A DNA stretch of 64,000 bases from Paraspadella gotoi (Eukaryota > Animalia > Chaetognatha). The translations under genes and the position numbers were made by a program. The stretch covers positions 11,257,710-11,321,709 of the forward strand of contig CM119268.1 in the NCBI GenBank assembly GCA_051294375.1, read 5' to 3'. Each line of letters starts with the position of its first letter. Position 1 is the stretch's first letter. The notes below the pieces were generated by a model that saw only the letters and a program-made list of their open reading frames with translations, was not told the DNA's origin and ran no database searches. This document shows, in pieces, positions 3,501-56,594 of the stretch.

Positions 3501-5164
3501 ATAAGATGTCCTAATAAATATTTCTAAATGGAGTTCTTCAATTGCTCTCTTTAGAATTTTCCTTTTAGCATAGAAATCAGCTATTAGCGCGCATATTTTT
3601 GGTTTTTACGTATGCTACTATTGCTACCTGCAGCATTCTTATAAATGGCTCTAAACGACTCGGGCTTGAACGGTTTAAAAGGTTTAAAAGCTAAGGGGGG
3701 TCGCAAAGGCGGAATTCATTTTTATTTAAAAATGATTTACCGACAAACTTTAGAGGCCGGACCGATGGACCCACAAAGTGAATTATAGATCCGAAATTTG
3801 CCATAAGCAGATCCGGATAAAAAGTCGACATCCGCGCAACCACCTGGCAAGGTAGGTGTGAAAGGCGAGAAGTCCAATGACCATCCCTATGGAGGGGACC
3901 AGGATCACGAAATTGATAATGTATCCTAGGTTATCGAGAACGCGCTCCATACCCGGCATAGACATGTCCAACCTCATAATGCTTTTAGAGTTGATGTATA
4001 AAGAAGCCGAAAGGACTATTCCCTCTGCAAAATACGTAGTAACGATTAAACGTAAAATCACAGTGGTCGTTTGGTAAATTAAATATGTTTTTATTAACGA
4101 CTGACCGAAAAAAAGAAACCACCAGAAGGCGGCGTGATTTCTCTGCCCCACGCAAGTTTCGAGCCACGGACAATGATGATCGTATCGCCGAACGCAAAAA
4201 CCGCAGTCCTCGCAGTGTCTCGTCCGCAAGGGTTGAGGAATACCGCAAAAGCCGCACTCGCGCAGCAGAGGTTTCGAGGGATCGTGGGGCATGCGATAAC
4301 GAGTGGCCGGGTCCACCACTGAACGAGCATTGCGTTTGTTTTACAGAAACTTATGTAGATAAAATTTCTTGGTAATTTTTAACTTACCCCCGTCGACCTT
4401 GGTGAAGTCGTTCCAAAATCTTCCTCCTCTCGATTCAACATCGTCGCGGTTCTGCTGCCCGTCTTCCTTGGGGTCGTTGGGCGGAACGAAGCCAGGATCG
4501 CGACAACACGTAACGAAATAAAGGACGAGGGCGACGGCGTATAGAAATAAATATCCCAGGCCGCAAGCCACGTCCTGGAAGGAGACGGCGGCGCCGTCCT
4601 CGCGCCCAACGAAAGTGTCCGTCAATGCCTCGCGCATGATAGAGTTTCGGTGGCCCGAGAAGACGGTGAGAACGAAGGCGGAAAGCGCAACGTGGATGCC
4701 GCGAGCCAGCATCGCCTTGAAGCGGCGCCGATGTCGCCGCCGCTTCGACGCGTCAACGTCGGCGCATGGGCACCGCGAACGGCGGCGCCAAGGGTTTTTG
4801 CCGCTCAGAAGGCGGCGCGCGCGCTGCTGGGATGTGAGTTTCTTTGGAGGCAGACGAGCAGGGGATAGGCCGTTGGGGCTGGTATAGGTGGCGGAAGGGC
4901 CAGGTAATGACTCGGATTTCGAGATTTGAGTTTGCATTCTTACCCTTGATCCTCGCCGCTGCTGCGAGCATCTATCTCGCGATTCTCCGCGTCTTCGGCC
5001 GTTTCGTTCTCGCTGTTTGCGATGTCCTCGTCGTCGTCGGCGTCTTCTGGACTTTCTGGCCACGCGACACCAGCATGACGTACTTCTGGCGTATGTTGAC
5101 TCAAAGCTTGATACTCTTTTGAGTTACGCCACGGGGCCGCCGCGGCGACTCGGGACAGCGCCAT
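557..5164 (-). CDS. ZDHHC12: DHHC palmitoyltransferase, ZDHHC12-like; multi-exon, last exon (557-~786) separated by a ~3-kb repeat-filled intron
   Basis: DPGFVP motif and Cys-rich domain [42 protein letters not shown]-terminal TTWE and PFDAG...NL motifs lie in the 557-784 ORF. GT-AG junctions join the ORF pieces. Paralog assignment is from memory of the family. Confidence 0.85.
1091..2688 (+). mobile_element. Non-autonomous Helentron/DINE-like (HINE) element, family A, copy 1 (interrupted by a foldback element)
   Basis: Begins aaagtatagtgatctcgccagacg and ends with a hairpin plus cgtctggcgagataaaa (subterminal inverted repeat TCTCGCCAGACG/CGTCTGGCGAGA). The same ends occur at 15511 and 32461. 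Confidence 0.75.
1325..2610. mobile_element. Foldback/MITE-like DNA transposon with ~600-bp inverted arms and 9-bp TSD (Mutator-like)
   Basis: Arms 1325-~1919 and ~2020-2610 are near-perfect reverse complements (tagggtgtttcaccc...gggtgaaacacccta). GCGTGACGA is directly repeated at 1316-1324 and 2611-2619. Confidence 0.9.
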
Positions 5165-8900: not shown

Positions 8901-11900
8901 GAAATGTTGGGGTCTGATTCGTAGCGGGAAGAGGAGCCGGAGACGGAGAGAATAAACCGATGGGCGATGGCGTGGACGTCGCGCCTACACTCTCAATGCC
9001 GCTGCCGCTGCCCCCGCCGGCACCGTGAAGCATTCCATGATGAACGCGCTGCCCCATTATCCCCTGGTTAAGCCGAAACCCTGCGTTAGTCAAGGAAGCT
9101 TTCGGCGGCGGCGCCACGTTCGGCGGTGGATCGTAGTTCTTGAGAACGACGTCGTCAACGGAGCGAGGAGCGGCGCTAACCGGCGGCGGCGCTGGAGGCT
9201 GCGCCGAATGTTGGGATTGAGAAGGCTGTGGCGGTATGAAATACGAGGGAGCATGAGGAGGAGCGCAAGGAAAAGAACCAGAAGGAACGGCAGGAGCAGC
9301 AGCGGAAGTTGACGAGCTTTGAGCGGTGAGTGAGGTTGAACTAGAGGAATGAGATGCATTGGATGGAAAAGTAGGAACGGCGTCAAAAGAAGGATGAGGA
9401 GGAAACTGAGATTGAGAGGGAGCGGGTGGTCCGACTTTGGGTCCGATGGTGAGCGATGAAGAACTTGCCGCACTGGAAAAGATTACAAATCTATTACGTA
9501 GGGTATAGTGCGGGGTAATTCGGAACACTTTAGTAAGTAATCAATTTTTTCATATAATAAATCAATTTCTGAAAACAATTTTAAGGTGATATACCACTCA
9601 AAGTGTCCCCTCTACAGGTTGATGCAGTCGTTTTTATTTTGCGGCCCTTAGGAGCCGCATTTCTTGAAGAAATGAAAGTGTATTAATAATACTATAATAA
9701 TTTTTTCCGCCTAATTATTTAAAAAATGTAGCTAATAGTAATTATATTTTATAAATTATTACTAACCTGTTATAAAAAGGATATGAGGTAATACAGAACA
9801 CTTTCTTTACAGTTTTTCCGTTTTAATTGTATCTATGTAAAAAATAATTAAATAATTGTGGCGACGACGTTTTCGTCGCCACGGATTTGACCCCAGTTGG
9901 CCACTCTGTTCGGTGGTCGCTCGGGAAGCCGGCTACTGATCTGATCTCTCTCTCTCTCTCTCTTTCTCTCTCTTACTTGATCAGTGCCGCGCTCTCTACC
10001 TTTAGTTCTCTCACGATCTCTCATTGTAACAACATGTCTCTAATATTGTATCATTGCTAATAAATGTACCTCTACATAATCTTTTCGAAATGCTCTCAAC
10101 AATAACTAAAAATAAACGGTCTCGTCTAGAACATAAGGAAGTGGTCTTTTCATAGAATTGAAACATTCTTTGAAATATTATATACCACTTCATTGATAGC
10201 CAGGTACTCCGGTAGTGAATAAACGAGACTGTGAGAGAGTCTTGATTGAAAGCTTGCAGGGACCTGCTATGTCATTATCTTGTAAGAGTGATGGAGGCCT
10301 AAAACCACCAAAGCCTGTCCAAAATCAGGGGCAAGATGGCTTATTTATTAAATATGCGATTTATTTCGAATTCAACATGGTTGATTCAGTACTGAAGAGA
10401 CAGTAATTATTGTTATGAGTTAGTGATAGAACCGTTCAATATAAGCAGTCCCTGAGCTTCGGATCAGGCTGTAACACCATGTTACAGGCGGGTTAAGCGC
10501 CCCGTCCCTCTAAACTGCCAGACGACCACCGGGCTAGAACCCCGGACCTTTGGGTTGGGAGGCGAATGACTTGCCTCCGGCACCAATGGCCGCTGATGAA
10601 CGGTTGGTGGGTTTTAGTCCACCATAGTACAAACAATAAGCTCAAGCAAGACTAGGTATAAACAAAAAACCAAAAAAAACAAAAATTAATTAAATAGTAG
10701 TAAATATTGAGGACAGTGTCTTTCGACAAATAGATTTTTGTAATTAAATTTTTTCTACGTTTGTTAAACATAGTGAAGATGTCCTGGTAACCAAAGAATA
10801 GTTTCCCATCTGTTAAATCCAAAAGATCTTTCGTACGCCATCATTGATAGCTACATTGAGTTTGTTCATGTCTTTAGCTAAAAAAGTCTTTACTTCACAA
10901 CCATAGAGCAAAATAGGAACACCATTAGAGTAAAACAATTTCATGAGTAATTCTTGAGACGGTTTGTATAAGGCATTAATTATGCAATTGCTCGATCGAT
11001 AAAAAGATGCGAGTTCTTTGGTAGGGTCAAATAAAGATCCCTTTTTACTTGATAGGTGAAATCCAAGATAAGTCCATCAGTTTATTAACTCTATTGGATG
11101 GATCATATTGAATGGATAATTTTTATATTGGTTGTACCAATTTCATATATATTAATATTTAACAGTCATATTAGTTATTATTACATTTGAAAACGACTAT
11201 TCAAAGACGAAATTTGACAAGCAACTTTGAAATTGCTGCTGCAGGTACTGAAGCAGCGGCGAAATGCCGTAAATTTATTATGGAAAGTCAAGTTGGTAAA
11301 ATAATTAATGTACCAAAAAAATTATAAAAGATAAGCACACAATTTCTTTATTTAATTTTATATTACGGTGTTCCTAATTACCCCGCACTACCCTTTAATA
11401 ACCACTTAACCGTACTTTCTCACCTATGCGTGCTCGAAGGTCGCGAAGAAGTCTGAAACTCCGGCGTAGCAGAGTCTCTCGTAAACGAAACAGGAGCGGC
11501 GAAGGCTTCGTTTCCGAACGGCGATCCGGCGGGGGCGGCGGAAAAAAAGTTGGCGGGCGAAAACGGTGGGCCACTAGAAGGCGCTTTTAGAGGAGGGAAT
11601 GGAGAAGGTCCCGAGAGAAAACCGCCTAAGAGGAGTGAAATATTGCGTAAAAAAAGGCCATCCAAACAAGAAAAAACTACTTTGAGGCGGTATATTCAAA
11701 CCGCCTCTCATTCATCATCATTCACTGAATGAATCCAAACATTCAGCCAATCCCATTGGCTCAGAGGGGGAACGGCGTTGCGTTCCATCCACAGTCCTAA
11801 CGACTTCCCTCTATGTTGGCAAAGCGAAACCGTCCTATGGTAACCGCGCCAGTAACAGGCGTCACTGAGGGTCGGAAGCCCCCAAAGCCAACAGTGAGAT

Positions 11901-12267
11901 GCCCCATCCCAATGGGCATCACAGGCAACCCGGCTGTTGCCATTTATTGTAAAAGCTTCTCACCCGAAGAGGTGGCCTGTAAGTCCTCCACCTCGAAATT
12001 CTCCAGATCCTCTGCCCCAGGAAGCGGTGAGCCCATCGTCATGACAGGAAAGGGACTCCCCTTTGCAACCGTCATCGAGTCCCCCTGTGCGGCGTCGGCA
12101 GAAGCCGGCACCAACAAGGGGACGTTGTCGTCAAGAGTCGAATCCATCGTCAATCCACGGCCGCCGCTCATCAGCAGCAGCGGTGGCGGAGTTTCGGTTT
12201 TCACGTCGCGGGATGACGGGTGGAGTCGAGGCATGCGGTTTGCGCGGGGCGACGAAGAAGACGACAT
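5913..12267 (-). CDS. SEC23IP: SEC23-interacting protein / DDHD2-type intracellular phospholipase A1 (Pro-rich N-terminus, WWE-like region, lipase, SAM, DDHD)
   Basis: [10 protein letters not shown], lipase GHSLGS, SAM-like ([14 protein letters not shown]) and DDHD motifs [16 protein letters not shown] and [11 protein letters not shown]. Exon 1 is 12267-~11964, exon 2 ~11625-11423, further exons from ~9472; GT-AG boundaries. SEC23IP versus DDHD2 orthology is not resolvable by eye. Confidence 0.9.
10400..10593 (-). mobile_element. tRNA-derived SINE (Gly-like head)
   Basis: The minus strand starts GCGGCCA...TGGTCGT (pairing acceptor stem) with A-box-like TGGTGCCGGAGG and B-box-like GGTTCTAGCCC. 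The body recurs at ~41433-41510 (+), and adjacent sequence 10289-10350 recurs at ~35986-36046. Confidence 0.7.
10797..11076 (-). mobile_element. Degenerate non-LTR retrotransposon (LINE) fragment, region C-terminal to the RT core
   Basis: Manual translation WTYLGFHL...[20 protein letters not shown]...[14 protein letters not shown] / GFNRWETI (one frameshift). YLG and PxLLYGxE are typical of the LINE ORF2 RT thumb region. Confidence 0.75.
11683..11942 (+). mobile_element. ~260-bp structured dispersed element carrying a twister ribozyme fold, copy 1 (SEC23IP intron 1, antisense)
   Basis: Clearly homologous end to end with 38826-39078. TG...CA termini and multiple hairpins. Confidence 0.85.
11814..11893 (+). 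ncRNA. Predicted type-P5 twister ribozyme, copy 1
   Basis: P5 UGUUGGC/GCCAACA; P2 CCGC/GCGA; UAA cleavage motif at 11841-43; T2 GC/GC; P3 CAGUAAC/GUCACUG; P4 GGG/CCC around L4 UCGGAAGC; T1 CCG/CGG. The conserved L1 GA reads AA in this copy. Confidence 0.72.
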
Positions 12268-13902: not shown

Positions 13903-16654
13903 TCATTGGCGTCGCTGGCGTTTGGGCTGTGGAGTAGCCGGCCCAAAGTTGGGCTCGTCGATGAGAGACACGTCCCTGCGTCTTTTATCCTCGGTGAGGC
14001 TGGACTGGCGCTGCTGGAAGCGGATCTGCATGATGTCGAAAATGATGCCGGGCATCTGCGTCGCCAACTGCTGCCAATCCTGTGAGGGACACTTGTTGAG
14101 AAAATCCAGCGCACGTTGCTTAAGATTCGGAGCCTCGTGGAGTTCGGCCAGATTTAACATTTCTTCCACGTTTCCTTTTTTAAGCTGAAAGATGAATAAC
14201 GAAAGCTTATTTTTTTTGTTTTGGGCAACGGCAATTCGAATTTTTATTTATAATTAAAAATTACGGACACGTTTCGGCTAGAGTTCGAGTCTTCATCAGC
14301 GCAAACTAATTTGTAAAATATTTTTGAAATTATTTCTAAAAAATAAAAAGAGAGAGAGAAAAAATAGAAACTCTTTCTCTCTCTCTCTCTTTTTTCTTTT
14401 TTTACTAAAAATACCAAAAATATTTCACAAATAAATTTGCGCTGATAAGAATCAAACTGGATCCAAAAATGTCCGTAATTTTTTTATTGTAAATAAAAAT
14501 TATATTTGTCGTTGCCGAAAACAAAAATTAAACCTTTGTTATTCTAAATTCAAATACAACGAAACTAAGGGATTAACACAAGGTGAGAGATGAAAAATTT
14601 AAAATGAAGGAAATATGACCAAATGAGAAAAAGAGAACTAACCTGTAGGATGAGCTCTTTCTCACAATTGTCTTTGAGCCTTTTAAGTTCGAACTGATTG
14701 GCGGCGGCGAGCAGGCTGGTGATGGACTCGAGCGATTCTTCGACGGTTCCAGTGTAAATGTAACGCATAACTTCCTCGAAAACGGAAGCTTTGATGTTGT
14801 GAACGTTAATGAGGACGCGCCCGTGAACGTCCACGCCAGGCGCCGTCGAATAGTCCAAGCGAGTCTCAGAATGAACGCGGCTGGGTTCCTCTGCTGGATT
14901 TTGTTCGTCGGCTGGTGGGGTAAAATGAATGAATGAATGAATGAATGAATGAATTGTGAAAAGGGGTAATATAATTTTTTTTAAATTAATTTTCAAAAGA
15001 TGGGGAACGGAAAAAATATGCAAAAGATAAAAATGTCGATTAATAGGGGAAGATATAAAAAGACTTACATTGCAAAAACATCTTTCTCATGACAGGCGAT
15101 CCCGCGCTGAGGATAACCTTGTGACCGAAAAATCGTCTCTCTCCGACAGAGAAGACAACATCGCTCAGCATCTCCGTGTCGGCCCAGAGTTTGTCGAGAT
15201 CCTGCTGAAACTTGGTCCAGGGATGGGATAGCCGTTCTTTCTCCATTTGAAGTTGACGACGCTTGTCGACGCTGCCGACGTCGTGAACGATGTTGATCAC
15301 GCAGACGAGCGTGAGAGAGTTGTCCTCGTCGATGTAGTTCTCCGGTTCGCGCTTGAGACGATCGAGCAGTAGAAACTTCTTGAAGCCCCAAGCCGGATGC
15401 TCCTTCTCGTTGAAGCAGCAGACTTTGAGGCTGTTGCGGAGATTCCGCTTTTCACCGTCGAGAAGAATGGCGATCTCGAAGTTGGCCCGTACCTATTAGA
15501 AAGAATATTAAAAGTATAGTGATCTCGCCAGACGTTACTATAAAAAAAATTAATGAAAAAAAAACATAAATGATCGAGGATATAACAAATTATTAATATA
15601 ATAGTAATTGATAAATATAATAGTAATTGATTGATTGATGTAATAATAATTGATTATTGATGCGATGATAACCAAATATTAATACGATAACCAAATATTG
15701 ATTCGATAACCAAATATTGATACGAGGATAACCAAATATTGATATGAGGATAACCAAATATTGATGCGATAATAACCAAATGATGGATGCGATAATAATC
15801 ATTCATTGATGTGATGATAGTCATTCATTTTAAATAAAAACAAACTGGACAGCCACTTGACAGCCACTGCAGAACTGAACTCGTCTATATATATAAAAAG
15901 TTTTGTAAATAAAACAAATAAATGAGTGTAAGAATATAAAACATGTGAATGTAAAAGATCTTGCTGATTAGAAGCTATATCTAAATTTTTAACTTCCTAT
16001 GGTTACAAACTTAAGCTATTTTTAATATTAAAACAGCATAACGACGAAGACATTGACTACGATAAAAAAAAGCAAACAAATTAACATATCTCCCAAGTCG
16101 GGCATTCGCCCGTCTGGCGAGATAAAAAAAAACTTGCTTTTCTGTTACTTATTTAGTAAATTGAAAGTCTCGCCCATTCCGATCTACCTCAGAATCCTTG
16201 CCGCAGTAGACCAAATAAACAGAGAGGAAGGGCCGGTCGTTTTGCTCGTGATCGTGACCGCGGAGATGGATCTTCATCTGAAACTGAATGCGGTCGTCGC
16301 CGGCTTCAGAGGGAAAATTTTTCGAGATGAGGAGGTTTTGTCCATGGTCCACTTCGTCGACGTCATCGTCGGGGTCAGGGTCGCGTTGCCACACGCGAAG
16401 GAATTCCTAAAAGAAGATTAAAGTAACTCATAATCTATGAATGAAATGAATGAAAACGCAAAAAATTCGGTTACCCTTATGGTCCAATTGAACTTAAGCT
16501 TTCCGAAGCAGACGGAGGAGACGCACTCCTCTTCGATGCGGTGGTCTGAATCGGATCCTAGGTCGGCGATGAGCTGTTCCTGCGAAGCCGTCTCTTGGAG
16601 ATGTCCGATGATGACCGAATCGATGGAATCGTCCAAACTGACGTGATCCTCCAT
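13903..16654 (-). CDS. MATH-BTB (SPOP/roadkill-like) Cullin3 adaptor, ~5 exons
   Basis: MATH-like KFNWTI, FLSVYL and WGFKKF; BTB SDVVFSVGERRFFGHKVILSAGSPVM and VMRYIYTG...LLAAANQFELKRLKDNCE; BACK-like AELHEAPNLKQRALDF; C-terminal basic NLS PQPKRQRRQ. Confidence 0.85.
14195..14544. mobile_element. Imperfect ~350-bp inverted repeat of Penelope-like LTR remnants, each with a hammerhead motif, in the last intron of the SPOP-like gene
   Basis: Arm ttgggcaacg...ttacggaca...tcatcagcgcaaa mirrors tttgcgctgataa...tgtccgtaa...cgttgccgaaaac around a GA/CT centre. Confidence 0.7.
14261..14304 (-). ncRNA. Minimal type I hammerhead ribozyme (Penelope-type)
   Basis: Minus strand reads UUGCG CUGAUGA A GACU-cgaacucu-AGCC GAAA CGU GUC^CGUAA. 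Stem I UUGCG/CGUAA pairs, the core is intact, and stem II has one mismatch. Confidence 0.65.
15511..16124 (+). mobile_element. HINE/DINE-like element, family A, copy 2 (intron of the SPOP-like gene)
   Basis: Same 5' and 3' ends as 1091-2688; internal gataaccaaatattgat-type tandem repeats. Confidence 0.8.
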
Positions 16655-32093: not shown

Positions 32094-33090
32094 TCAACCA
32101 TCGCAAGGCTCAGGAAATTCGTAATGCTTGACACCCTTGACAGTAACATCACTCGGATACTGCTTGGGTAGTATTGGATAAACATGTGAGACGTTCCAGG
32201 TGCAAATAGCCACTAGCCAATAGACCAAAACAGTACTTAGAAAGAAAAGAATAAATCTTTCAAGAGTGTAACCCTTGGGAAAAGCTCCTGTGACCCTCTG
32301 CTGTGGCTCTAGTCTGTCCTCCGTATAAAGATCCGCATCAATGTGCATCGGTTCCCCGAAATTACGTCTGAAAATAAAACAAAACTAATTCTTTTCTCGA
32401 TCTACTGAGGAAGTATCAGCATATGTATGAGCAAATTTTATTATAACAAAAAAAATCTTAAAAGTATAGTGATCTCGCCAGACGTTACTATCAAAGAAAA
32501 TAAATGAAAAAAAAAAATAATTGATGAGAACGAATTATTGATATAATAATGATTAATATAATAATAATTGATTAATTGATATAATAATAATTAATAGATT
32601 GATGTAATGATAATTGATTGATTGATGTAATGATAATTGTTTGATTGATGTAATGATAATTGATTGAATAATAATTGATTGATTGATATAATAATAATTG
32701 ATTGATTATTGATATGATGATAACCAAATATTGATGCAATAATAACCAAATATTGATGCAATAATAACCAAAGGATTGATGGAATGATAACCAAATGATG
32801 GACGCAATGATAACCAAATGATGGACGCAATGATAATCATTCATTGATGAAATAATAATCATTCATTGATACGATAATAATCATTCATTGATGCGATGAT
32901 ATTCATTTATTGATGCGATGATATTCATTCATTGATGCGATGATATTCATTCATTGATGCGATGATAGTCATTCATTGATGCGATGATAGTCATTCATTG
33001 CTGCGATGATAGTCATTCATTGCTGCGATGATAATCATTCATTGCTGCGATGAGTCATTCATCGTAAATAAAACAAATGCGAGTATGAGT

Positions 33091-33122
<32 letters not shown>

Positions 33123-34406
33123 AAAAAAAGATAGAGAGAAGCTGGACAGCCGCTGCAGAACTTAATTTGTTTTTAGACAAATCAGAAGAAGCAGCGACGG
33201 AAAAAGAGAGCGACATATATTTTAAAAAGCTGGACAGCTGAACAAATGAATGGAGGAATATGAAACGTGTGAATTTAAAAGATCTTGCTGATTAAAAGCT
33301 ATATCTAAATTTTTAGCTTCCTATGGTTACACACTTGAGCCATTTTCAATGTTAAAACAGTGTGACAACGACAACAACGACGAATACAGTCAAAAGAAGC
33401 AGAAATGAATTAACATCTCGCCCAAGTCGGGAATTCGCCCGTCTGGCGAGATAAAAATGACTGCAAAATCGGCGAATGTAAAAATAAGCCCTACTAAATA
33501 AATGCTAATGTATACACCGTTAAAATAATCTATCATGAGCATAGATTATGGTATTAAAATATTTTTTATCAAAAATGCTTTTTTCTGAGGGTACTAGCCT
33601 AGTTAAAAATATTATATTATTATATGAAACAAAAATTTTTTTTAATTTAAAAATTTTTTGATGGATTCTGATAGAGCATAAAAAGTTGATCAAGAAATAT
33701 AATTAGAGCTTTTAAAAATTCTTATGTTTTCTAAGTGAAAATATAAATAAAAATTGATAAAATCATCGGAAGATGATGATGAATTTTTACGTTTTTTCTT
33801 ATTTATGACACTTATTATAAAAATATTTAAAAAAGAATTATACTTTGTGTAGATAACTTTTTATGAGCTATCTGAATCTGGTTTTAAAATAAAAAAATTC
33901 CAAAATAAATTTTGGCCTTTCCTATCTATAAATAAATATTAAAAAATTAATTACTAGGTTATAGAACCATATTAGAAATTTTTTGTCCATTGAAAGTATT
34001 CTTAGAAATGTATAAATATTCGTTTGAGCATGTACTCACACTAAATTTTTGACTCACCCCATTGAGTTGGGCTACCCCTACTACTAACAGACCCTTCAAC
34101 CTTTACGCTTCATGGATACCTGTCATATTGATAGTCCCAGTTGTAGTACGGATCTCGTGCGTAACCGCCAGATTTCGGCAAATCCGGATAGTCGCCAAAC
34201 TCCCCTGTTGGTATGGGTTTGTAGTCCTCAACGATGAGACCGTACTTTTTAGCGGCGGCGGCGTACATCTCGGGCGTGGTGGGAAAAGGTCCGGCCTTCC
34301 AATCCTGATTCCAGGTCGTTATAGAGCCGTGGCGGACAGAACCCAACAGGCGGAAGGAGGCGGCTGGGACGCGCCCGACCGAGCGAAGAATCGGAAGGAG
34401 GACCAT
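32094..34406 (-). CDS. NDUFB8: NADH:ubiquinone oxidoreductase subunit B8 (ASHI), 2 exons
   Basis: WKAGPFPTTPE...AAAAKKYGLIVEDYKP...GDYPDLP...RDPYYNWD joined to RNFGEPMHID...PILPKQYP...HYEF. Confidence 0.93.
32461..33453 (+). mobile_element. HINE/DINE-like element, family A, copy 3 (NDUFB8 intron), with an expanded ~22-bp minisatellite
   Basis: Same termini as the other copies; tandem gatgcgatgatagtcattcatt units at ~32830-33060. Confidence 0.8.
33560..34000. repeat. Old, degenerate palindromic MITE-like remnant (approximate limits)
   Basis: gattctgatagagcataaaaagttgatc (~33664) is mirrored by gataactttttatgagctatctgaatc (~33852); related motifs near 41264 and 51198. Confidence 0.4.
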
Positions 34407-38500: not shown

Positions 38501-39779
38501 TCGAGGTCGTCGATGAAGACTCCGAAGCTGTAGGTTCTTCCGCATCAGCATCGACCGACTAAAAAGATATTTTAAATTATTTTTGACATTAAATTAAGCT
38601 ATTAGTATTTCGTTGCTAAGTCGTACCTGCGACGAAACTACCCCGTCGGGCCCGATCCAAATCTCGACCCTCGGTGGAACGAAGGGCTTCTTCGACTTGC
38701 GCCTCTTCTTCGTCTCCTTAGCTTTTTTAGTCGGACGAAGCTTTTCCTTACGGCGCCGTTCCTCGTCCGCTTCATGCTTTTTACGAACCTAGCGGTGAAA
38801 AAAACTCATTTGATTATTACGATAATGTGGCGGTATATTCACACCGCCTCACGTCCACCATCGTTCAGCCAATATCATTGGCTCAGAGGGGGAACGCACC
38901 ATCCCAGGCGTTGCGTTCTATCCACAGTCCTAACACGACTTCCCTGTGTTGGCAAAGCGAGACCGTCCTAGGGTAACCGCGCCAGTGACTGGAGGCGTCA
39001 CTAAGAGTCGGAATCCCCCAAAGCCAACAGTGAGATGCCCCATCTCAATGGGCATCACAGGCAACCCGGCTGTTGCCATATTAAAATATTTTCAAATAAA
39101 ATAGAAGATCTCACGTCGTCAAATATAGAGTTGAGGGATTCTCTCGCGGTGATGAAGGGGTTGCTGGCCGCTAAGCTGCGCATATAGTAGTAGACGGCGT
39201 CTAATTTTCGCTTCGTGTAGACCGCAAGGATAGCCAATTGATTGTAGGGTCTCCCATTCTTTGGCGCGAGCTGCTGTGCCTTTAAGTAGTAGCTACGGGC
39301 CTTACCGTAGTTGGGATTAGGGTAAGTTTGTTCGCGATACCTACGAATGCATAGACGTTATAGTGACTAAAGAAATTAAAAGCAAGTAATTTGGGCAATA
39401 TTGTAAATTACGTAAATTAAGTAACTATAGAGCGTGATCGGTGAGTCTAACCTTGCGATATCTCCCAGGGCGATGAGGCACTTTTGGGCGGAGACGAGCG
39501 CCATCCTGACGGCGCGGCAGAGGCCCTCATTGCGGAAAGGCGTTGGTCTCTCGACAAAGTCGGCCACAGAAATTTGAAAAGTCGTCTCGAGACGCTGGAG
39601 GAGGGAGTCGTAGAAGAGGACGGCGTCGTCGAGGACCTGGTAAATCTCGGCGCGAGCCTGAGAGAAAAAATTGAAAATAAGAAATTTTTTTCTTAAAACA
39701 GACAGGTTTCTACTATGATTATAGCTTTTATCAGCGCAAATTGACAAATTAGACAAATTTTCACAAAACGTGTGTGTGT

Positions 39780-39811
<32 letters not shown>

Positions 39812-42800
39812 AAAAGAAAGAATGAGAGAGAGATGAGGTTAAAGTTTCCAACAAAAAATTGAGAGATAAAATAGTGGTGAGAAGTTGAGGACAGCTAAAG
39901 AGTGAGGAAAGTGGGAAAGAAGTGAAAGGTCAGAGATTTAAATGCATACATTAAGCAATGTACATTTGTACAACACGGTGAATTTTTTTTTTAAACTGAA
40001 ATTAACAATTAAATAAAATAAGTTGATTGAACTACAACTAAAGAAAAATTAAAAGTTAATTAAAGTTAAAAATATACAATCGAAAGAAAAACAATACTAT
40101 AAGAATTGTTAAAGAATTATGTAATTTAAAAACTCACTTTTTCCTCAGCCACTTTATCGCCCTCCTCTTGCGCCTTAAGGAGGCCCTTGCGTGAGAGTTC
40201 GATGATTTGGTAAAAGCAAGACTTCCACAGGAGTTGCTCGAGGTTGTTCTTGTTTGAAAGTTCAAGGTCGAGAAAGAGCAGATCCACCAGGAGGGAGCAG
40301 AGCCTCTCGCGCCTTTCTATCACCTTGGGGACGTTTTCATCGTTGAGGGGCCAGCGCGACAGAAGATTGCTTAGTTGATTGTCGACGGCCGTCACTTCTT
40401 GAAGGAGAGCGTCGAACTGTTGCAGCTTAGAGGGCTCTCGGTAAGGAGCGCCGCCCGTTGGGTCAGAATGCGCGAAACCGCCTCGCGCCATAGGAGCGCC
40501 TGGATGCGGCATACCGGCGGGACCTCTGGCCCTAAGATACTGCGCATGAGCCATAGAGGAAGCCTCGCCACTCGGGTGAAAAGCTTCACCCGAGCCATAT
40601 TCTGGCCCATAATAACCGGGATTGGCGTACGCCGAGGGATGACCGTACGGCGGTGGTCGGTAAAAGTTTTGCGCTTGTTGCGGTTGACCGTGCGGTTGTT
40701 GCATGTTTGGAGGCAAAAATCCTGGATGAGGCGGCGGCACCCTTCCACCTCCGTAATAGCCAGAGTAATGCTCCGGAGTCGGATAAAGAGAGTGAGGGGG
40801 TGTATCGGGCGAGTCGACGGAGGGCGCCCTCTGGGCCTGCGATGCCATTAGCGGCTTCGTCGGATTGCGAGGATCGTAGAGGCGATCTTCGTTGTATACC
40901 GACACTTGATGTCGATCATGGCGCCTTTCCTTTTGTTGTTGCTGTTGTTGCTGCTGCTGCTGTTGTAGGTATTGCTGACGAAATCTAGGCGGGGCATTTT
41001 TCGGAGGAACGAAGTGCTTTGGAGGTGGGGGATCTGCAACTGTAAAGAAAATGTATAAATAATTTTTATTGCCTCTACATTAAAGCGTATATAGTAAAAA
41101 TTCTATATTTAAGTTTATTTAAAATTCTAAAAGTGAGGAGCGAACAACATTAAACTAATGAACATTTATGTATAAAAAAAAGTAGGCCATATTTATACAT
41201 AGTACTAATCCATTAAATGTTAACATTTTAAAATAGTTTTCTGTAGGATTTTTTTGCAGATTTGGATTCGTCATGAAAAGTTGATATAAAGAAATATAAC
41301 TCTTTTTTAATAACTATTTCATTAAGTTGGTCAAATATAAGAAAAAACCTATATTTTAAGCTAAAAATTAAAATTTTATATATTAAATATAGTTTTTTTA
41401 AATTTTTAACCCACTTAATGAAAGAATTTTTAAGCCTGATCCGAAGCTCAGAGACTGCTTATATTGAACGGTTCGGTCACTAACTCATAACAATAATTAC
41501 CGTCTCTTCACAATCAAAATTAAGAAAATTTTGAAATTTTACGATTTTATGAGGATAGTACTATAAATATAGCCTACTGCGAAAATTAACAAGTTTGAGC
41601 AAACAATGTCGGATCTGCCTACGATAATTAAGCGGTAATGAGCTAATCCGATGATAAATCATGGTAATATTTTCTAACTTTCTATTTGTTATCTTAACAG
41701 ATCATAACAAATTGTAACATAACAAATCTTAACAGACTTCTTAATAAATCTTTGAAAAAATCTATAAATCAATTGATCTATCAATCATTACCAGTAGCTG
41801 CTAATACCAACTTGCATAATTTAGTCAACTTGCAAAATTTGCTCAACTGACATAATTTGATCAACTGACATAATTTGCTCAACTGGCATAATTTGGTCAA
41901 CCGGCTTTATTTGCTCAACTGGCATAATTTGGTCAATAGGCATAATTTGTCAAGCAATCAATCAATCAGAGAGAGATAGAGAGGGAAACTTTAAATCCAT
42001 CCAATCACGAGTAATTGGAGTATTATGCTAAGGGGGGACGGAGAGACGGACGGACGGACGAACACCATTTTTTTTTGGCATAATTTATCATAATTTGATG
42101 TTCTGACATGTTCTAAGTTAATGACCGACAAGATTTGGGGGGTGGACAGACGGACCGACAAAGTAAATATTTACGATAAGCAGATCTGACTAAAAATATA
42201 ATTTTTTTTTTGGATAAATTAATGTTTACTGATGTTATGTTGTTCATATTTGAATTTTAGAATTTTTGTATGCAACTTTCTACGCTCTGCTCTACATGGT
42301 AACAATTCTAAAACAGCCGTTAAAAACGCTCCCATTTGCAAACCATTATTTCATTGATTTTAAAAGTTGAGTAAAAAATACCAAAATCATTTGTTTTCAA
42401 ATTTTATATTCATCAGTTAAGATATGCCTTGACAATGAGTGGAAAAAGTTGACTTTTAAAATGGGGTTTCAATTTCTAACTCAGTTTTTAAATTCAATTT
42501 TTTAAAACTTTTAATACTTTTTAGATAAAGTATTTATTATTAATATGAAAAATTTAAAAGAATGATACTTACGAAAGCTCTTATATAAAAATTAAGCTGC
42601 CCAACCCCGGTTCAGGATACCCTATCACATTTTAATAAAAATTTTAAATTTGCCCTACAGCTATTGATTTTTTGAAAGATATCTCGTTTTTGACTATCCT
42701 AATTAAATTAAAGCTGGGCCAGTTAAATTTTATACTACAGTATTCGTAAGTACATCATTCTCTGATTTGCAAGGGCTTTCAGAAGATAATAATATTAATA

Positions 42801-45800
42801 TCATTTTATTTTAAATTTCTTCACTGGAAGTAAGAGAAAAAAATTGAATTTAAAACACAGCGAGTTTAAAAATCAGAGACGATTTTCAAATCTATCTTCC
42901 TGCTATCATTGCTTCAAGGCATATCAAAGTCGATTCTGATAAAATTTGCATATATAAATAGTTAGGGTATTTACTTTTAAATTCATATTTAACATTTAAC
43001 AAGTTTGAGCAAACAATGTCGGATCTGCCAATGATCATTATCGGTAATTAATTAATTAATAATTAAATAATTCAAGTTAATTAACTAGGCATTTAATTAA
43101 TTAATTTGATCCCAAATGTTTGTTTTTAGGTCTTTTCGCCACTAACCACGACAATATCAATGACGATAAGAATAATGCCGATAACGATTGACTTGATTGA
43201 TTGACTGATTAATTAATTATTGATTAATTAATTGACTAATTGATTAATTAACTGATTATTTTATTAATTAATACATCTTGTATTTACATTTAATATAAAA
43301 AAAAAAGAAGCATAATCAATTAGTGAAACAGATTTTTTTTGTTTTTCTCATTTAAACTCAATTCCACTCAAACAATTCCATCAAAACTTGATTTCCAGTT
43401 TAATCATACTTTTCTACCCACATACAAAATATCAGGTCAATCGCCGCATCCACTCATGAGCAATTGGTTTTCAAATAGTGAAATATATTTGTTTGTTTTT
43501 TCCACTCATTTCCATTCGGATGATTCAAAAACTTTGATTTTCTCATAATTTATCATAATTCGATGTTCTGACATGATATAAGTGCCCGACAAGATTGAGG
43601 GGGCGAACCGACGGACCGACAAAGTGAATTATAGAGTCGGGATCTGCTGATAAGCAGATCCGACTAAAAAAACTTTATGGGTTTGCAAATGGCAGCTTTT
43701 TTTAGCGGCGGTTTTAGAATTGTCATCAAGTAGATGTATGTTGATAACATCTTTTTGAATAAAGCGATACCGGGCGGAGATGGAGTCTTTCTCGCGGCTT
43801 CCATAATTCCTTCGGGTATCCTGATGATTCCGCCACCCTTGCCCGAGCGCGATGGGTCATTACTCTCCTGCTCTTTAACCTTTCCAGCAGCTCCAGTGTT
43901 AGCGTTAGGAACTGTTGATGAAGCGATTTTTGCTTCTTTGCCGTCTTTCTCTTTTCCCTCGGAAGAAAAGCGAGACTTTTTATCCGACTGAGACCGATTG
44001 CTGTCGTACGAACTGGCCGAGTCCTGGCGACATCGTTGTCGATTTCTATCGCCTGAGAAATAAGCATTTTTCGGTTTAAAATATTTATAAATCAAGAATT
44101 TGGTCCCCCCTTTGGGAACTCAAATGATTCGAACAAAGACGACGACGAATATAATAACGAAGACGACGACGAAGTCTTTGTACTTTGTGACCCGTAGTGG
44201 TCAGTAAGAATAACCTTTCCTAACCAAACAGAATGACCTTGTTATGGCTGACCTTTTCCAGCCAATGTAAATACGTATTTGTTGTTGTTATTTTTACCTT
44301 TTTGATTTTTACTTACTTATTTTCGTTAATATATGTTTTCTCTTCTCACAAAAAACACGTCTCGAATTTTTCTCTAAATTCTTATTTTTGAGTCACCTCA
44401 CCCCCAAAATATCTGAAAACAGAAAACGTCGAACCTTTCCCTTTGTCTTCCCTACGATCTTCCTTGCTTCTCCGAGGTGATTTGGATTTAGCATCATCTT
44501 TGGGTTTGACGGGCTCCTGTTTGTCCCGAGGGTTGTTCTCTTGTCTGTCCTTCTGTTTGTTTTCATTTTTGTCGCGAAGTTTTTCTTCGTGTGACGGCGT
44601 TTCGTTTTGAGGAGAATTAATATCACCAGTATTGGAATCCTCCATTTTAATTTCAAGCTTGCCTTCTTTTTCGAGCTTCAGTTCTTCCTCGTACATTTTA
44701 TCCTAAATAAATTTTTAAATGTTAAATTTTGAATGTAAGAATTTTGTTCGGTCATCCTCATTGACTCACCCTTTCAAAATCTTCTATCTCGGCGCTCCAC
44801 GATTCCACAAATTCACGGTCACGCGTGAGAACCTCGAAAGAGCATTCGGACTGACCGGAAGCTTCCTCGCTTACGTCTTCCATGTCGCGGGACCGTGGTC
44901 GACTTGACGACCCGCCACTGTCCGCGTGAGCTTCCTCTTTCAGTCTCGACGCCTCCTCGTCTAACTTTCGCTTCACGTCCCTGACATTAATGGCTCCGCC
45001 GCCTCCTCGGCCTCCGCGTCGGTTCAACGCCGGATTTCGCCCCTGAGGGGCAGGAGGTCCTCTTCGTTCGTCCCTCCGAGGAGCCTCCTTATCTCGTCTC
45101 CGATCCACGTCTCTCTTCTCAAAATCTCTGCCTTCGTCTCGACGTCCGTCGCGCCTTTCCTCCTTTTTCGCTTCTCTCTCCACAGACGGTCGACCGCGCC
45201 TCTCGTCGGTGTATCTCTTTCCGCCAGCCACGCCGCCTCCCGGACCGCAACCGCCGACGCCACTTCCGCCCCAATCCTCCCATCCTTTATCGCTCCCAGT
45301 GCTCGTTGTCCGGTTGCGATGATTATAGCCGAGCCGCCCCTGATCCAAGGAATCTTTCGACGAAGATCCTTTAACCCTGTCCCCTTGCTTAAGCTTGTCG
45401 TGCTGGCTGAAGGTTCTTGTGAGGCTGTTGCTGCCCGACAGCTGGTTTGTTACTTCCATTTTCTCTCTCATACTTTCGCTTCTGTTAATTCCTCCGTGTG
45501 GCGGGCCCTTGTCCCAACTCTCCCCGCGCCCATCTCTTCCATTATGCCTGCCCTTACCACGGCCACTACTGCTTCCGGTGGAATCTTTGTGAAACCTTCC
45601 CCCCTTCGTCTCCTCTGGGTTTCTTCTTTCTTTTCCCGCATCCACCTCAAAATTTTCCTTGTGTGGTCTCCCGAACTTTTGGGAGTAACCGCCGACGCCA
45701 GCGTCATCCCGAAGTCCGCGCTGATCGAAGCGATTTCCGGCGGCGGCCGCTCCCGGGTCCCTTGGGTGTGGCCGCTGATGATAATCGTCTCTCTTACTTT

Positions 45801-54238: not shown

Positions 54239-54963
54239 AACAAGTTTGAGCAAACAATGTCGGATCTACTCACGATCATTATCGGTAATTAATTAATAAT
54301 TATTTAATTAATTTAATTAATTTGATCCGAAATGTTTGTTTTGATTGATTAATTGACTGATTAATTAATTATTGATTAATTAATTGACTAATTGATTAAT
54401 TAACTGATTAATTATTTGATTAATTAATACATCTTGCATTTACATTTAAAATAAAATGAAAAAGAAGAATATTCAATTAGTGAAACAGGTTCTTTGAATT
54501 TTCCATTTAAACTCATTTCCACTCAAACGATTCTATCAAAACTTGATTTCCAGTTTAATCACACACTTACCCAAATACAAATTTCAAGTCAATCGCCCCA
54601 TCCACTCATGAGTAATTGATGTTCAAATAATGAAATATACTTTTTGGTTTTTTTCCATTTAAACTTGGACGATTTCCATCATATCCAGCTCAATAACACA
54701 CTTCCCTACCCACACACAAAATTTCATTCCAATCCATCCATCCAATCACGAGTAATTGGTGTTTTTTGCTAAGGTCGGTCGGACGGATGGAAGGACGGAC
54801 GGACAGACATACAGACGGACGGACATCGTTTTTTTTGGCATAATTTATCATAATTCGATGTTTTACATGATATAAGTGAATGCCCGACAAGATTGAGGGG
54901 GCGGACCGACGGACTGACAAATTGAATTATAGAGTCGGGATCTGCTGACAGCAGATCCGACTA
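54239..54963 (+). mobile_element. HINE/DINE-1-like element, family B, copy
   Basis: Same termini as 42998-43666; ggacggacagac microsatellite at ~54780-54824. A 5'-end fragment of this family also lies at ~859-910. Confidence 0.8.
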
Positions 54964-55585
54964 AAAATACCAACGTTCCGCTTTGGTTAAGACATTGTGA
55001 AAATCACATTACGTGATCTTAGACTAATGAATTCCAATAACAAAAGAGAAAAGGAATGAGCGCGGTCGTGATTGTCGCGTGACAGACTCTTGTACGGAGA
55101 GCGTGTGGTCAATTAAGGAAAAGAGGGTGAAAAGTTAGATTAAAGGAGTAAGAATAGTAGGGGGTAACGAAAGGCAAGACCTAGTGAGAGAAGTAATGCA
55201 AAGAAAGGAAGAAGAAAAAGGACAGACTAAGAGCGATGGTCGCTAATTGGATGAATCCCAACTCGATTTCCTCGAATCGCTGAATCGTGATTGGCTCGAT
55301 TGGGGTTTGACGATGGAGTCGGGAGATTGGAGTTGAGACCACATGGAAGGGAAGATTGTCGCGCAAGGAAATCGTGGAGGGACCAACGGAGGAGAATAAA
55401 TCTCATTATCTTACGTTTATGTATCTATTATATATAAAGACAAACTCAGTTACTGGGAAATTTGATCATAAGTAAATTTTAAATGAGTCTAACTGGACCA
55501 TTGATGAAGTAACTTCCTAGAATTTGTATTTTTCATAATAATAGTTGATAATTGATTCTGTCGTGCTTAACAGATGGAAAATGAT

Positions 55586-55669
55586 AAAACAGTAGATTTA
55601 ATAATTTATTCATGATGAAAAAGCACTGTACTTCGAAGTCAGAATAAATTATTAAATCTACTATGTTTT
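55586..55669 (+). repeat. Long hairpin enclosing a degenerate hammerhead core
   Basis: agtagatttaataatttattc pairs with gaataaattattaaatctact; between them aTGATGA...GAA GTC. Confidence 0.5.
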
Positions 55670-56548: not shown

Positions 56549-56594
56549 AATCGACAGATTTTGCGGAAAATATTTTCCGCAAAATCTGTCGATT
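56549..56594. repeat. Perfect 46-bp palindrome
   Basis: aatcgacagattttgcggaaaat|attttccgcaaaatctgtcgatt. Confidence 0.9.

Follow-up and report, generated by a model that had tools for sequence, protein, structure and literature searches.

Does the 255-bp repeat that interrupts an intron of an SMG6-like gene encode a self-cleaving RNA of the twister class, by what route might such a repeat have spread, and can the orientation of its intronic copies be read as a sign of catalysis? It is already known that animal genomes contain twisters and that mobile elements can carry ribozymes. The initial annotation of the window (the whole 64,000-nucleotide stretch of DNA analysed here) described two damaged copies of a twister-bearing element, proposed that their consensus would restore the conserved core, and suggested that their antisense placement in introns might be indirect evidence of activity. 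We addressed these points with the letters of the window, with Rfam and descriptor scans, and with contigs from public sequencing runs.

Two copies of the repeat lie in introns of minus-strand genes

The two copies (Table 1) are on the same strand and are 87% identical, with 189 of 218 letters matching in the aligned part of the window self-comparison, and nhmmer found no third copy of the 255-bp repeat in the 64-kb window. The right end of copy 2, previously placed at 39078, is moved to 39080 by the loose ends of contigs. The first and last 6 nt of copy 2 form an imperfect inverted repeat (5/6 matching). Folding z-scores for the whole unit were -5.2 for copy 1 and -1.7 for copy 2.

Both copies had been described as lying on the + strand within introns of minus-strand SEC23IP-like and SMG6-like genes, and a splice joint, the exons and GT/AG boundaries confirmed this. 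One RNA-type contig joins 11624 to 11963 (CT..AC), which corresponds to a minus-strand intron around copy 1, while the exons flanking copy 2 lie together on a single RNA-type contig of 13,778 nt; read on the minus strand, the intron between them begins with GT (39114) and finishes with AG (38789), its own joint falling outside the joints listed. If the inserts were removed, the introns would measure 71 and 76 nt. The SMG6-like gene was identified by its EST1 and EST1_DNA_bind domains and the SEC23IP-like gene by SEC23IP homologs and its WWE_3 and SAM domains; the best protein-database matches, from animals, were 44% and 52% identical. We assigned the intron of copy 1 to the SEC23IP-like gene by position, inferring its link to the coding exons below 9540. 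Thirteen of the 15 open reading frames of at least 200 amino acids are on the minus strand. A dense run of same-strand genes extends from 3783 to 46392, in which the sulfurtransferase stop is separated from the presumed SEC23IP start by only about 220 nt, and from the sequence this arrangement appears operon-like.

Other repeats are also present in the window. One ribozyme-free family (1079-1352, 15500-16128 and 32448-33457), which we take to be Helentron/HINE-like, has subterminal inverted repeats and internal tandem repeats, and its three copies share one orientation. A second ribozyme-free family, presumably also HINE-like, has four copies in one orientation (3727-3823, 41586-42196, 42998-43670 and 54239-54970), two of them in introns of the SMG6-like gene. 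A 1.3-kb foldback element (1317-2618), with arms of up to 370 nt at 96% complementarity, is inserted at the end of the repeat at 1079-1352, and the self-comparison revealed palindromic stretches at 14194-14544, 41307-41433, 55586-55669 and 56549-56594.

Table 1. Positions, in the window, of the repeat copies, their parts and their host introns
Feature	Positions	Strand	Remarks
Copy 2, dispersed 255-bp repeat	38826-39080	+	Fills 255 of the 326 nt of the SMG6-like intron
5' terminal hairpin of copy 2	38826-38851	+	8 of 9 pairs, begins TG; from the sequence
5' structured domain	38867-38947	+	Hairpin 38867-38883, stem 38891-38919, closing stem 38885-38947
Putative ribozyme	38948-39028	+	Type-P5 twister-like; from the pair table, the Rfam twister-P1 consensus and the weak copy 1 match
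Predicted scissile U^A bond	38974-38975	+	149 nt into the element; placed from the twister consensus (PMC5408937)
Private lesions of copy 2	39003-39014	+	39003 (P3 end), 39006 (P4 middle), 39014 (T2)
Two 3' hairpins and right end	39030-39080	+	Hairpins 39030-39058 and 39060-39077
Copy 1	11683-11944	+	Ribozyme 11815-11892; lesions 11828 (general base), 11854 (P3), 3-nt loop deletion
Host intron, SMG6-like gene	38789-39114	-	GT..AG, 326 nt; EST1 and EST1_DNA_bind in flanking and upstream exons
Host intron, SEC23IP-like gene by position	11625-11962	-	338 nt, spliced in RNA-type contig

The centre of the repeat aligns with a circularly permuted twister

A type-P5 twister was recognised by permuted P1, P2 and P4, a T1 pseudoknot of 3 bp plus an A-A, a T2 pseudoknot of 2 bp, and an L1 with U^AA and GA, where the A of U^AA is the general acid and the G of L1 GA the general base; the definitions of types P1, P3 and P5 and the position of the cut follow the accessible text of PMC5408937. 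In the pair table the centre of the repeat aligns base by base with such a fold, with its termini in P5. Both copies form all 6 pairs of P5 (38948-53/39023-28), all 3 pairs of T1 (38963-65/39009-11) and 3 of the 4 pairs of P2 (38957-60/38977-80). T2 (38981-82/39014-15) and P4 (39005-07/39016-18) are complete in copy 1 (2/2 and 3/3 pairs) and each one pair short in copy 2 (1/2 and 2/3). P3 (38983-89/38997-39003) has 7 bp, P1 is a 2-bp hairpin (38966-73), P4 closes an L4 of 8 nt (39008-15), and the L1 GA and the U^AA are at 38961-62 and 38974-76. Two of the three T1 pairs depart from the Rfam twister-P1 consensus on both sides with pairing kept, the repeat having CGG in L4 with CCG where the consensus has CCC with a G-run.

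A strict P5 descriptor (fixed UAA, GC, L4 U..AA, perfect T1, 6-bp P5), which was written after the element had been seen, matched only the two copies on both strands of the window. Across 150 Markov shuffles of the window it gave no match with at most one defect, 0.02 per shuffle with at most two, and 0.12 per shuffle with at most three. A looser P5 descriptor returned 22 rows in the window at up to three defects and so discriminates poorly. The Rfam scan of the whole window at gathering thresholds found no twister, and the Rfam scans of the window found no hammerhead. Copy 1 aligned with positions 1-62 of the 68-position twister-P1 model (RF03160) and scored 11.4 bits, well under the cut-off of 67.2, in an alignment cut short by the permutation of the fold. 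Copy 2 gave nothing at E of 10 or below and the Rfam type-P5 family matched neither copy, in scans that took in these two damaged copies and not the family majority sequence. Taken from the sequence, this architecture makes it very likely that the centre of the repeat is a twister, and RNA of the + strand is predicted to self-cleave at U38974^A38975.

The repeat belongs to a dispersed family with two fixed ends

We read the family from the contigs of four (X1, X4, X7 and X9) of 11 listed public runs, the locus itself being present in nine runs of the same organism; X9 was taken to be RNA-type by guess, supported by spliced contigs. Contigs aligned to the element numbered 6393 in X1, 6432 in X4, 2023 in X7 and 432 in X9. 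Depth across the element was thousands of times that of its flanks, although summed contig depth is no copy number, and the depth shares given below describe collapsed contigs, not counts of copies. Loose ends were found before 38826 in 144/139/93/33 contigs (X1/X4/X7/X9) and behind 39080 in 171/175/104/38, with additional ones at 38822 in 38/39/18 contigs; against copy 1, 185 and 35 contigs depart behind 11943. One DNA run thus holds 171-185 different right flanks. The loose flank letters are AT-rich and mutually unlike (agreement 0.39-0.45), and their consensus, which is biased by the reference flank, reads ATAT on both sides. Since both ends are sharp and have similar flank counts, the copies have neither 5' truncation nor a poly-A tail, and no tail, TTTT or polyA signal was found inside the element. 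The repeat is a dispersed family with two fixed ends in AT-rich sites, comprising at least about a hundred insertions and likely hundreds to thousands.

Exact motifs of the element had no match in metagenome, genome and viral contigs. A degenerate P5/CGG pattern hit at least 37 viral and at least 120 metagenome loci; among the 157 pattern matches listed, one (L156:297-367) fitted the loose descriptor with at most one defect, probably by chance, and a P5 pattern with canonical T1 had no match in viral contigs.

The lesions of each copy are private

The readings on which the initial annotation based its consensus were reproduced in the pair table. Copy 2 keeps the L1 GA where copy 1 reads AA, and at 38987-38999 in P3 it has a G-C pair against A-C in copy 1. 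In copy 2 the last letters of L4 are AAUC, which leaves C-U at the T2 pair 38982-39014, and the 5' side of P4 reads AGAG, with A-C at the middle pair 39006-39017. Copy 2 has a further lesion that had gone unmentioned, C-A at the terminal P3 pair 38983-39003, and thus three in all. Two more A-C mismatches, at the L1-proximal P2 pair 38960-38977 and at 39004-39019 outside the three P4 pairs, are common to both copies, and because the family has no 5% variant at these pairs we regard them as family traits and not as lesions.

Where copy 2 has its three lesions, the contigs hold a different letter in 99.6% (39003), 99.8% (39006) and 99.3% (39014) of X1 depth and in 97.5-98.3% of X4 depth. For copy 1, the corresponding shares of X1 depth are 99.2% at the changed general-base G and 90.5% at the P3 site. 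The general base, T2 and P4 are intact in about 99% of X1 depth. The core lesions are therefore private to each copy. The expectation that a consensus would restore the core thus stands, in that the contigs of the four runs hold an intact majority with all catalytic and pseudoknot positions. What falls away is the idea of complementary lesions, which are private mutations and carry no evidence, because any two decayed copies would show them.

Subfamily variation of the repeat resides in the 5' structured domain, where the pair 38896-38914 has undergone a compensatory switch: it is G-C in both window copies and A-U in 93-95% of depth, which places both window copies in a minority subfamily that holds 5-7% of depth. 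In X1, none of the 74 ribozyme sites had a minor letter at 5% or more, against 12 of the 181 sites in the rest of the element (p = 0.02), a count that leaves aside the low-depth rows 38934-38946 (beside the copy 2 indel) and 38990 (3.5% in X1), all outside the core. The terminal regions (27 and 52 nt) were likewise free of polymorphism, so that constraint would act on the ends together with the ribozyme and not on the ribozyme specifically, unless the family is simply young. A young burst would also make the ribozyme homogeneous.

Possible routes of spread

Judging from its anatomy, the family may spread as a retrozyme-type retroelement whose 255-bp units are solo-LTR-like copies, the reading that we prefer and hold with middling confidence. 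The TG start, the 5/6 inverted 6-mer and the ATAT flank consensus on both sides fit integrase ends, and the size of the element, its central ribozyme, its TG start, its inverted ends and its A/T-rich 4-nt flanks resemble the solo LTRs of plant retrozymes. The right terminus reads ...CCATA, that is, TA and not the CA of TG...CA. The immediate 4-nt flanks are ATAA/TTAA and ACTT/TATT, with no perfect 4-bp target site duplication at either copy, and no internal region, PBS, PPT, paired unit or go-back joint was found among the joints listed (15 of 85; 15 of 36). A central ribozyme would split the RNA of a monomer in two, which argues against 5'-end trimming as in Perere-3; the central position would make sense if source loci had two units in direct repeat, as in plant LTR retrozymes. 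Such a locus would be transcribed, both of its ribozymes would cut, and the intervening piece would circularise. A helper retroelement would then reverse-transcribe the circle, and integrase would insert the product at AT-rich sites, which would give the fixed ends.

A possible alternative, which we consider clearly less probable, is a MITE-like non-autonomous DNA transposon with inverted ends of 6-7 bp, a TA or 4-bp target duplication and mobilisation by a DDE transposase, in which the twister, active or not, is a passenger captured once. The sharp symmetrical ends, the imperfect inverted 6-mer, the AT-palindromic flank consensus, the terminal hairpins and the monomeric dispersed copies would all suit such an element. 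TA lies one base beyond both ends of copy 2, but the left TA is absent from copy 1. The inverted ends are asymmetric as well as very short, and no variant at 5% repairs them. A DNA transposon would also have no reason to keep the catalytic positions while subfamily changes fall outside them (0/74 against 12/181), and a literature search combining twister, transposon and terminal inverted repeats returned no papers.

Less likely again is that the copies are monomeric offspring of a tandem non-LTR retrozyme or of an element derived from a Penelope pLTR, with a twister replacing the type I hammerhead. The animal host agrees with this origin, as do the 255-bp unit, which is within the range of 150-400 bp, and the dispersed monomers; monomers scattered in this way, with 42-44% of copies intronic, are reported for Xenopus in the accessible portions of bioRxiv 10.64898/2026.07.22.740005 and PMC7229834. 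However, Penelope-like insertions are described in the part of PMC8557442 that was available as 5'-truncated with partial tandems, whereas both ends are fixed here, and the flank consensus does not continue into a second unit.

Other element classes were rejected. A tRNA-SINE is contradicted by the cut site 149 nt inside the element and by the lack of a tRNA and an A-tail, an SL-RNA-like origin by the lack of a U-run, and a Helentron/HINE by the lack here of the subterminal repeats that other families of the window have. In CryptonS elements the ends are direct repeats of 5-6 bp, mostly TATGG, in the oomycetes and the diatom covered by the available text of PMC3212892; in the repeat, the only TATGG belongs to the minus strand of the right end and stands in inverted orientation to the TGTGG of the left end.

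Activity of the two copies and the meaning of their orientation

We think it improbable that the RNA does not cleave and that its twister fit is vestigial or has arisen by coincidence in a repeat rich in hairpins. Such a reading would draw on the Rfam scores below threshold, on the two family-wide A-C mismatches and the 2-bp P1, and on the competing folds that dominate the pseudoknot-free predictions. In these predictions pair probabilities were 0.87-1.0 for P5, 0.04-0.26 for P2, 0-0.09 for P4 and 0 for P1, and the twister scaffold was 9.5-12 kcal/mol above the MFE in the two copies, but the program cannot score pseudoknots. Furthermore, all catalytic and pseudoknot positions are present and T1 is compensatory. 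Imperfections in P1, P2 and P4 are largely tolerated in about 2600 natural type-P1 twisters, as reported in the accessible part of PMC11662667. At 38979-38998, a rival hairpin pairs the GC of T2 with the P3 loop in the MFE structure of copy 1, and a short hairpin internal to P3 competes in copy 2; these modelled hairpins could represent misfolding or a switch.

In the same portion of PMC11662667, mean cleavage fell from 0.76 to 0.53 when the 2-bp pseudoknot had one mismatch and to 0.54 when the general-base G was changed to A. As cleavage of comparable natural twisters was lowered but not zero, both copies are likely weakened and not surely dead. By this analogy, copy 2 would likely be weakened by its T2, P4 and P3 lesions together, without necessarily being dead. 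Because it is antisense, it would not be made as a ribozyme from the host promoter, and it likely decays neutrally.

The proposal that sense insertions would cut the host pre-mRNA and be purged, so that an antisense bias would reveal catalysis, started from two antisense copies out of two, for which the probability without any bias is 0.25. This concordance is not special to the ribozyme repeat, because the ribozyme-free families of the window are equally concordant (3/3 and 4/4); of the further repeat pairs, one was concordant and two were discordant. An antisense bias is reported for intronic transposable elements in general in the consulted parts of PMC3088655, PMC3517506 and PMC1794541. 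Reporter experiments disagree on self-cleavage within introns: as related second-hand in the available text of PMC2995048, a hammerhead was tolerated and did not block splicing, whereas a fast HDV ribozyme was not tolerated and did. Since splicing was blocked only by the fast ribozyme, the premise of purging is plausible for a fast twister but is not given. Given the bias of ribozyme-free elements and the tolerance of cleavage, catalysis would not be proved by an orientation bias as such; proof would take a bias that follows the intactness of the core and is stronger than in control repeats. Damage in both antisense copies says nothing either way about the purging of sense copies.

We put forward only tentatively, as a conjecture that is probably too strong, that recently expanded, fixed-end, integrase-type units have formed around a type-P5 twister, either as a twister retrozyme or as the first MITE-like element to bear a ribozyme. 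Intact copies would then be numerous enough in the compact genome for sense intronic insertions to be purged, and orientation bias would report ribozyme activity in vivo across the whole genome. With naturally mutated copies present by the hundreds or thousands among densely packed genes, it could also be tested directly whether selection in animals acts against fast self-cleavage in introns.

Comparison with known systems

The ribozyme itself is most readily compared with type-P5 twisters (Rfam clan CL00120), with which it shares P1, P2, P4, P3, P5, T1, T2, the U^AA, the L1 GA and the consensus spacing. It differs from them in its CGG/CCG T1, its 2-bp P1 hairpin and the family-wide A-C at the end of P2, in scoring below the Rfam thresholds, and in sitting within a 255-bp repeat.

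For the element as a whole, we infer from anatomy that the closest counterpart would be the solo LTR of a plant retrozyme with its hammerhead replaced by a twister. The accessible text of PMC4918200 describes isolated hammerheads in plant solo LTRs of 300-400 bp with 4-bp target site duplications, and proposes that a circular template yields solo LTRs directly. Both are non-coding units about as long as an LTR, with a single self-cleaving motif at the centre and with fixed ends, and both occur as many isolated copies. The repeat differs in its animal host, in having a twister and not a type III hammerhead, in its right end of TA and not CA, and in being known here only as monomer units. Animal non-LTR retrozymes, in the sections of PMC7229834 and bioRxiv 10.64898/2026.07.22.740005 that could be consulted, resemble the repeat in their animal hosts, in a ribozyme unit of 150-400 bp and in dispersed monomers, many of them intronic. 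They carry type I hammerheads in tandem arrays, whereas no tandem of the repeat occurred among the joints listed (15 of 85; 15 of 36), and rare arrays are possible.

The twister of the Schistosoma mansoni Perere-3 T-variants is, in the accessible part of PMC8501958, likewise a high-copy twister tied to an invertebrate mobile element. In that coding LINE the cut site occupies the 5' end and adjoins the target site duplication, whereas the predicted cut site of the repeat is 149 nt into a non-coding, tailless unit whose two ends are fixed. Our literature search, which covered openly accessible article texts, found no twister described within an LTR-like or MITE-like unit of fixed ends. In the parts of the literature available to us, the described retrozymes use hammerheads and the link between twisters and transposons is the 5' end of a LINE. 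A permuted twister at the centre of a unit with fixed ends would add a third arrangement to these, and one that is invisible to Rfam thresholds.
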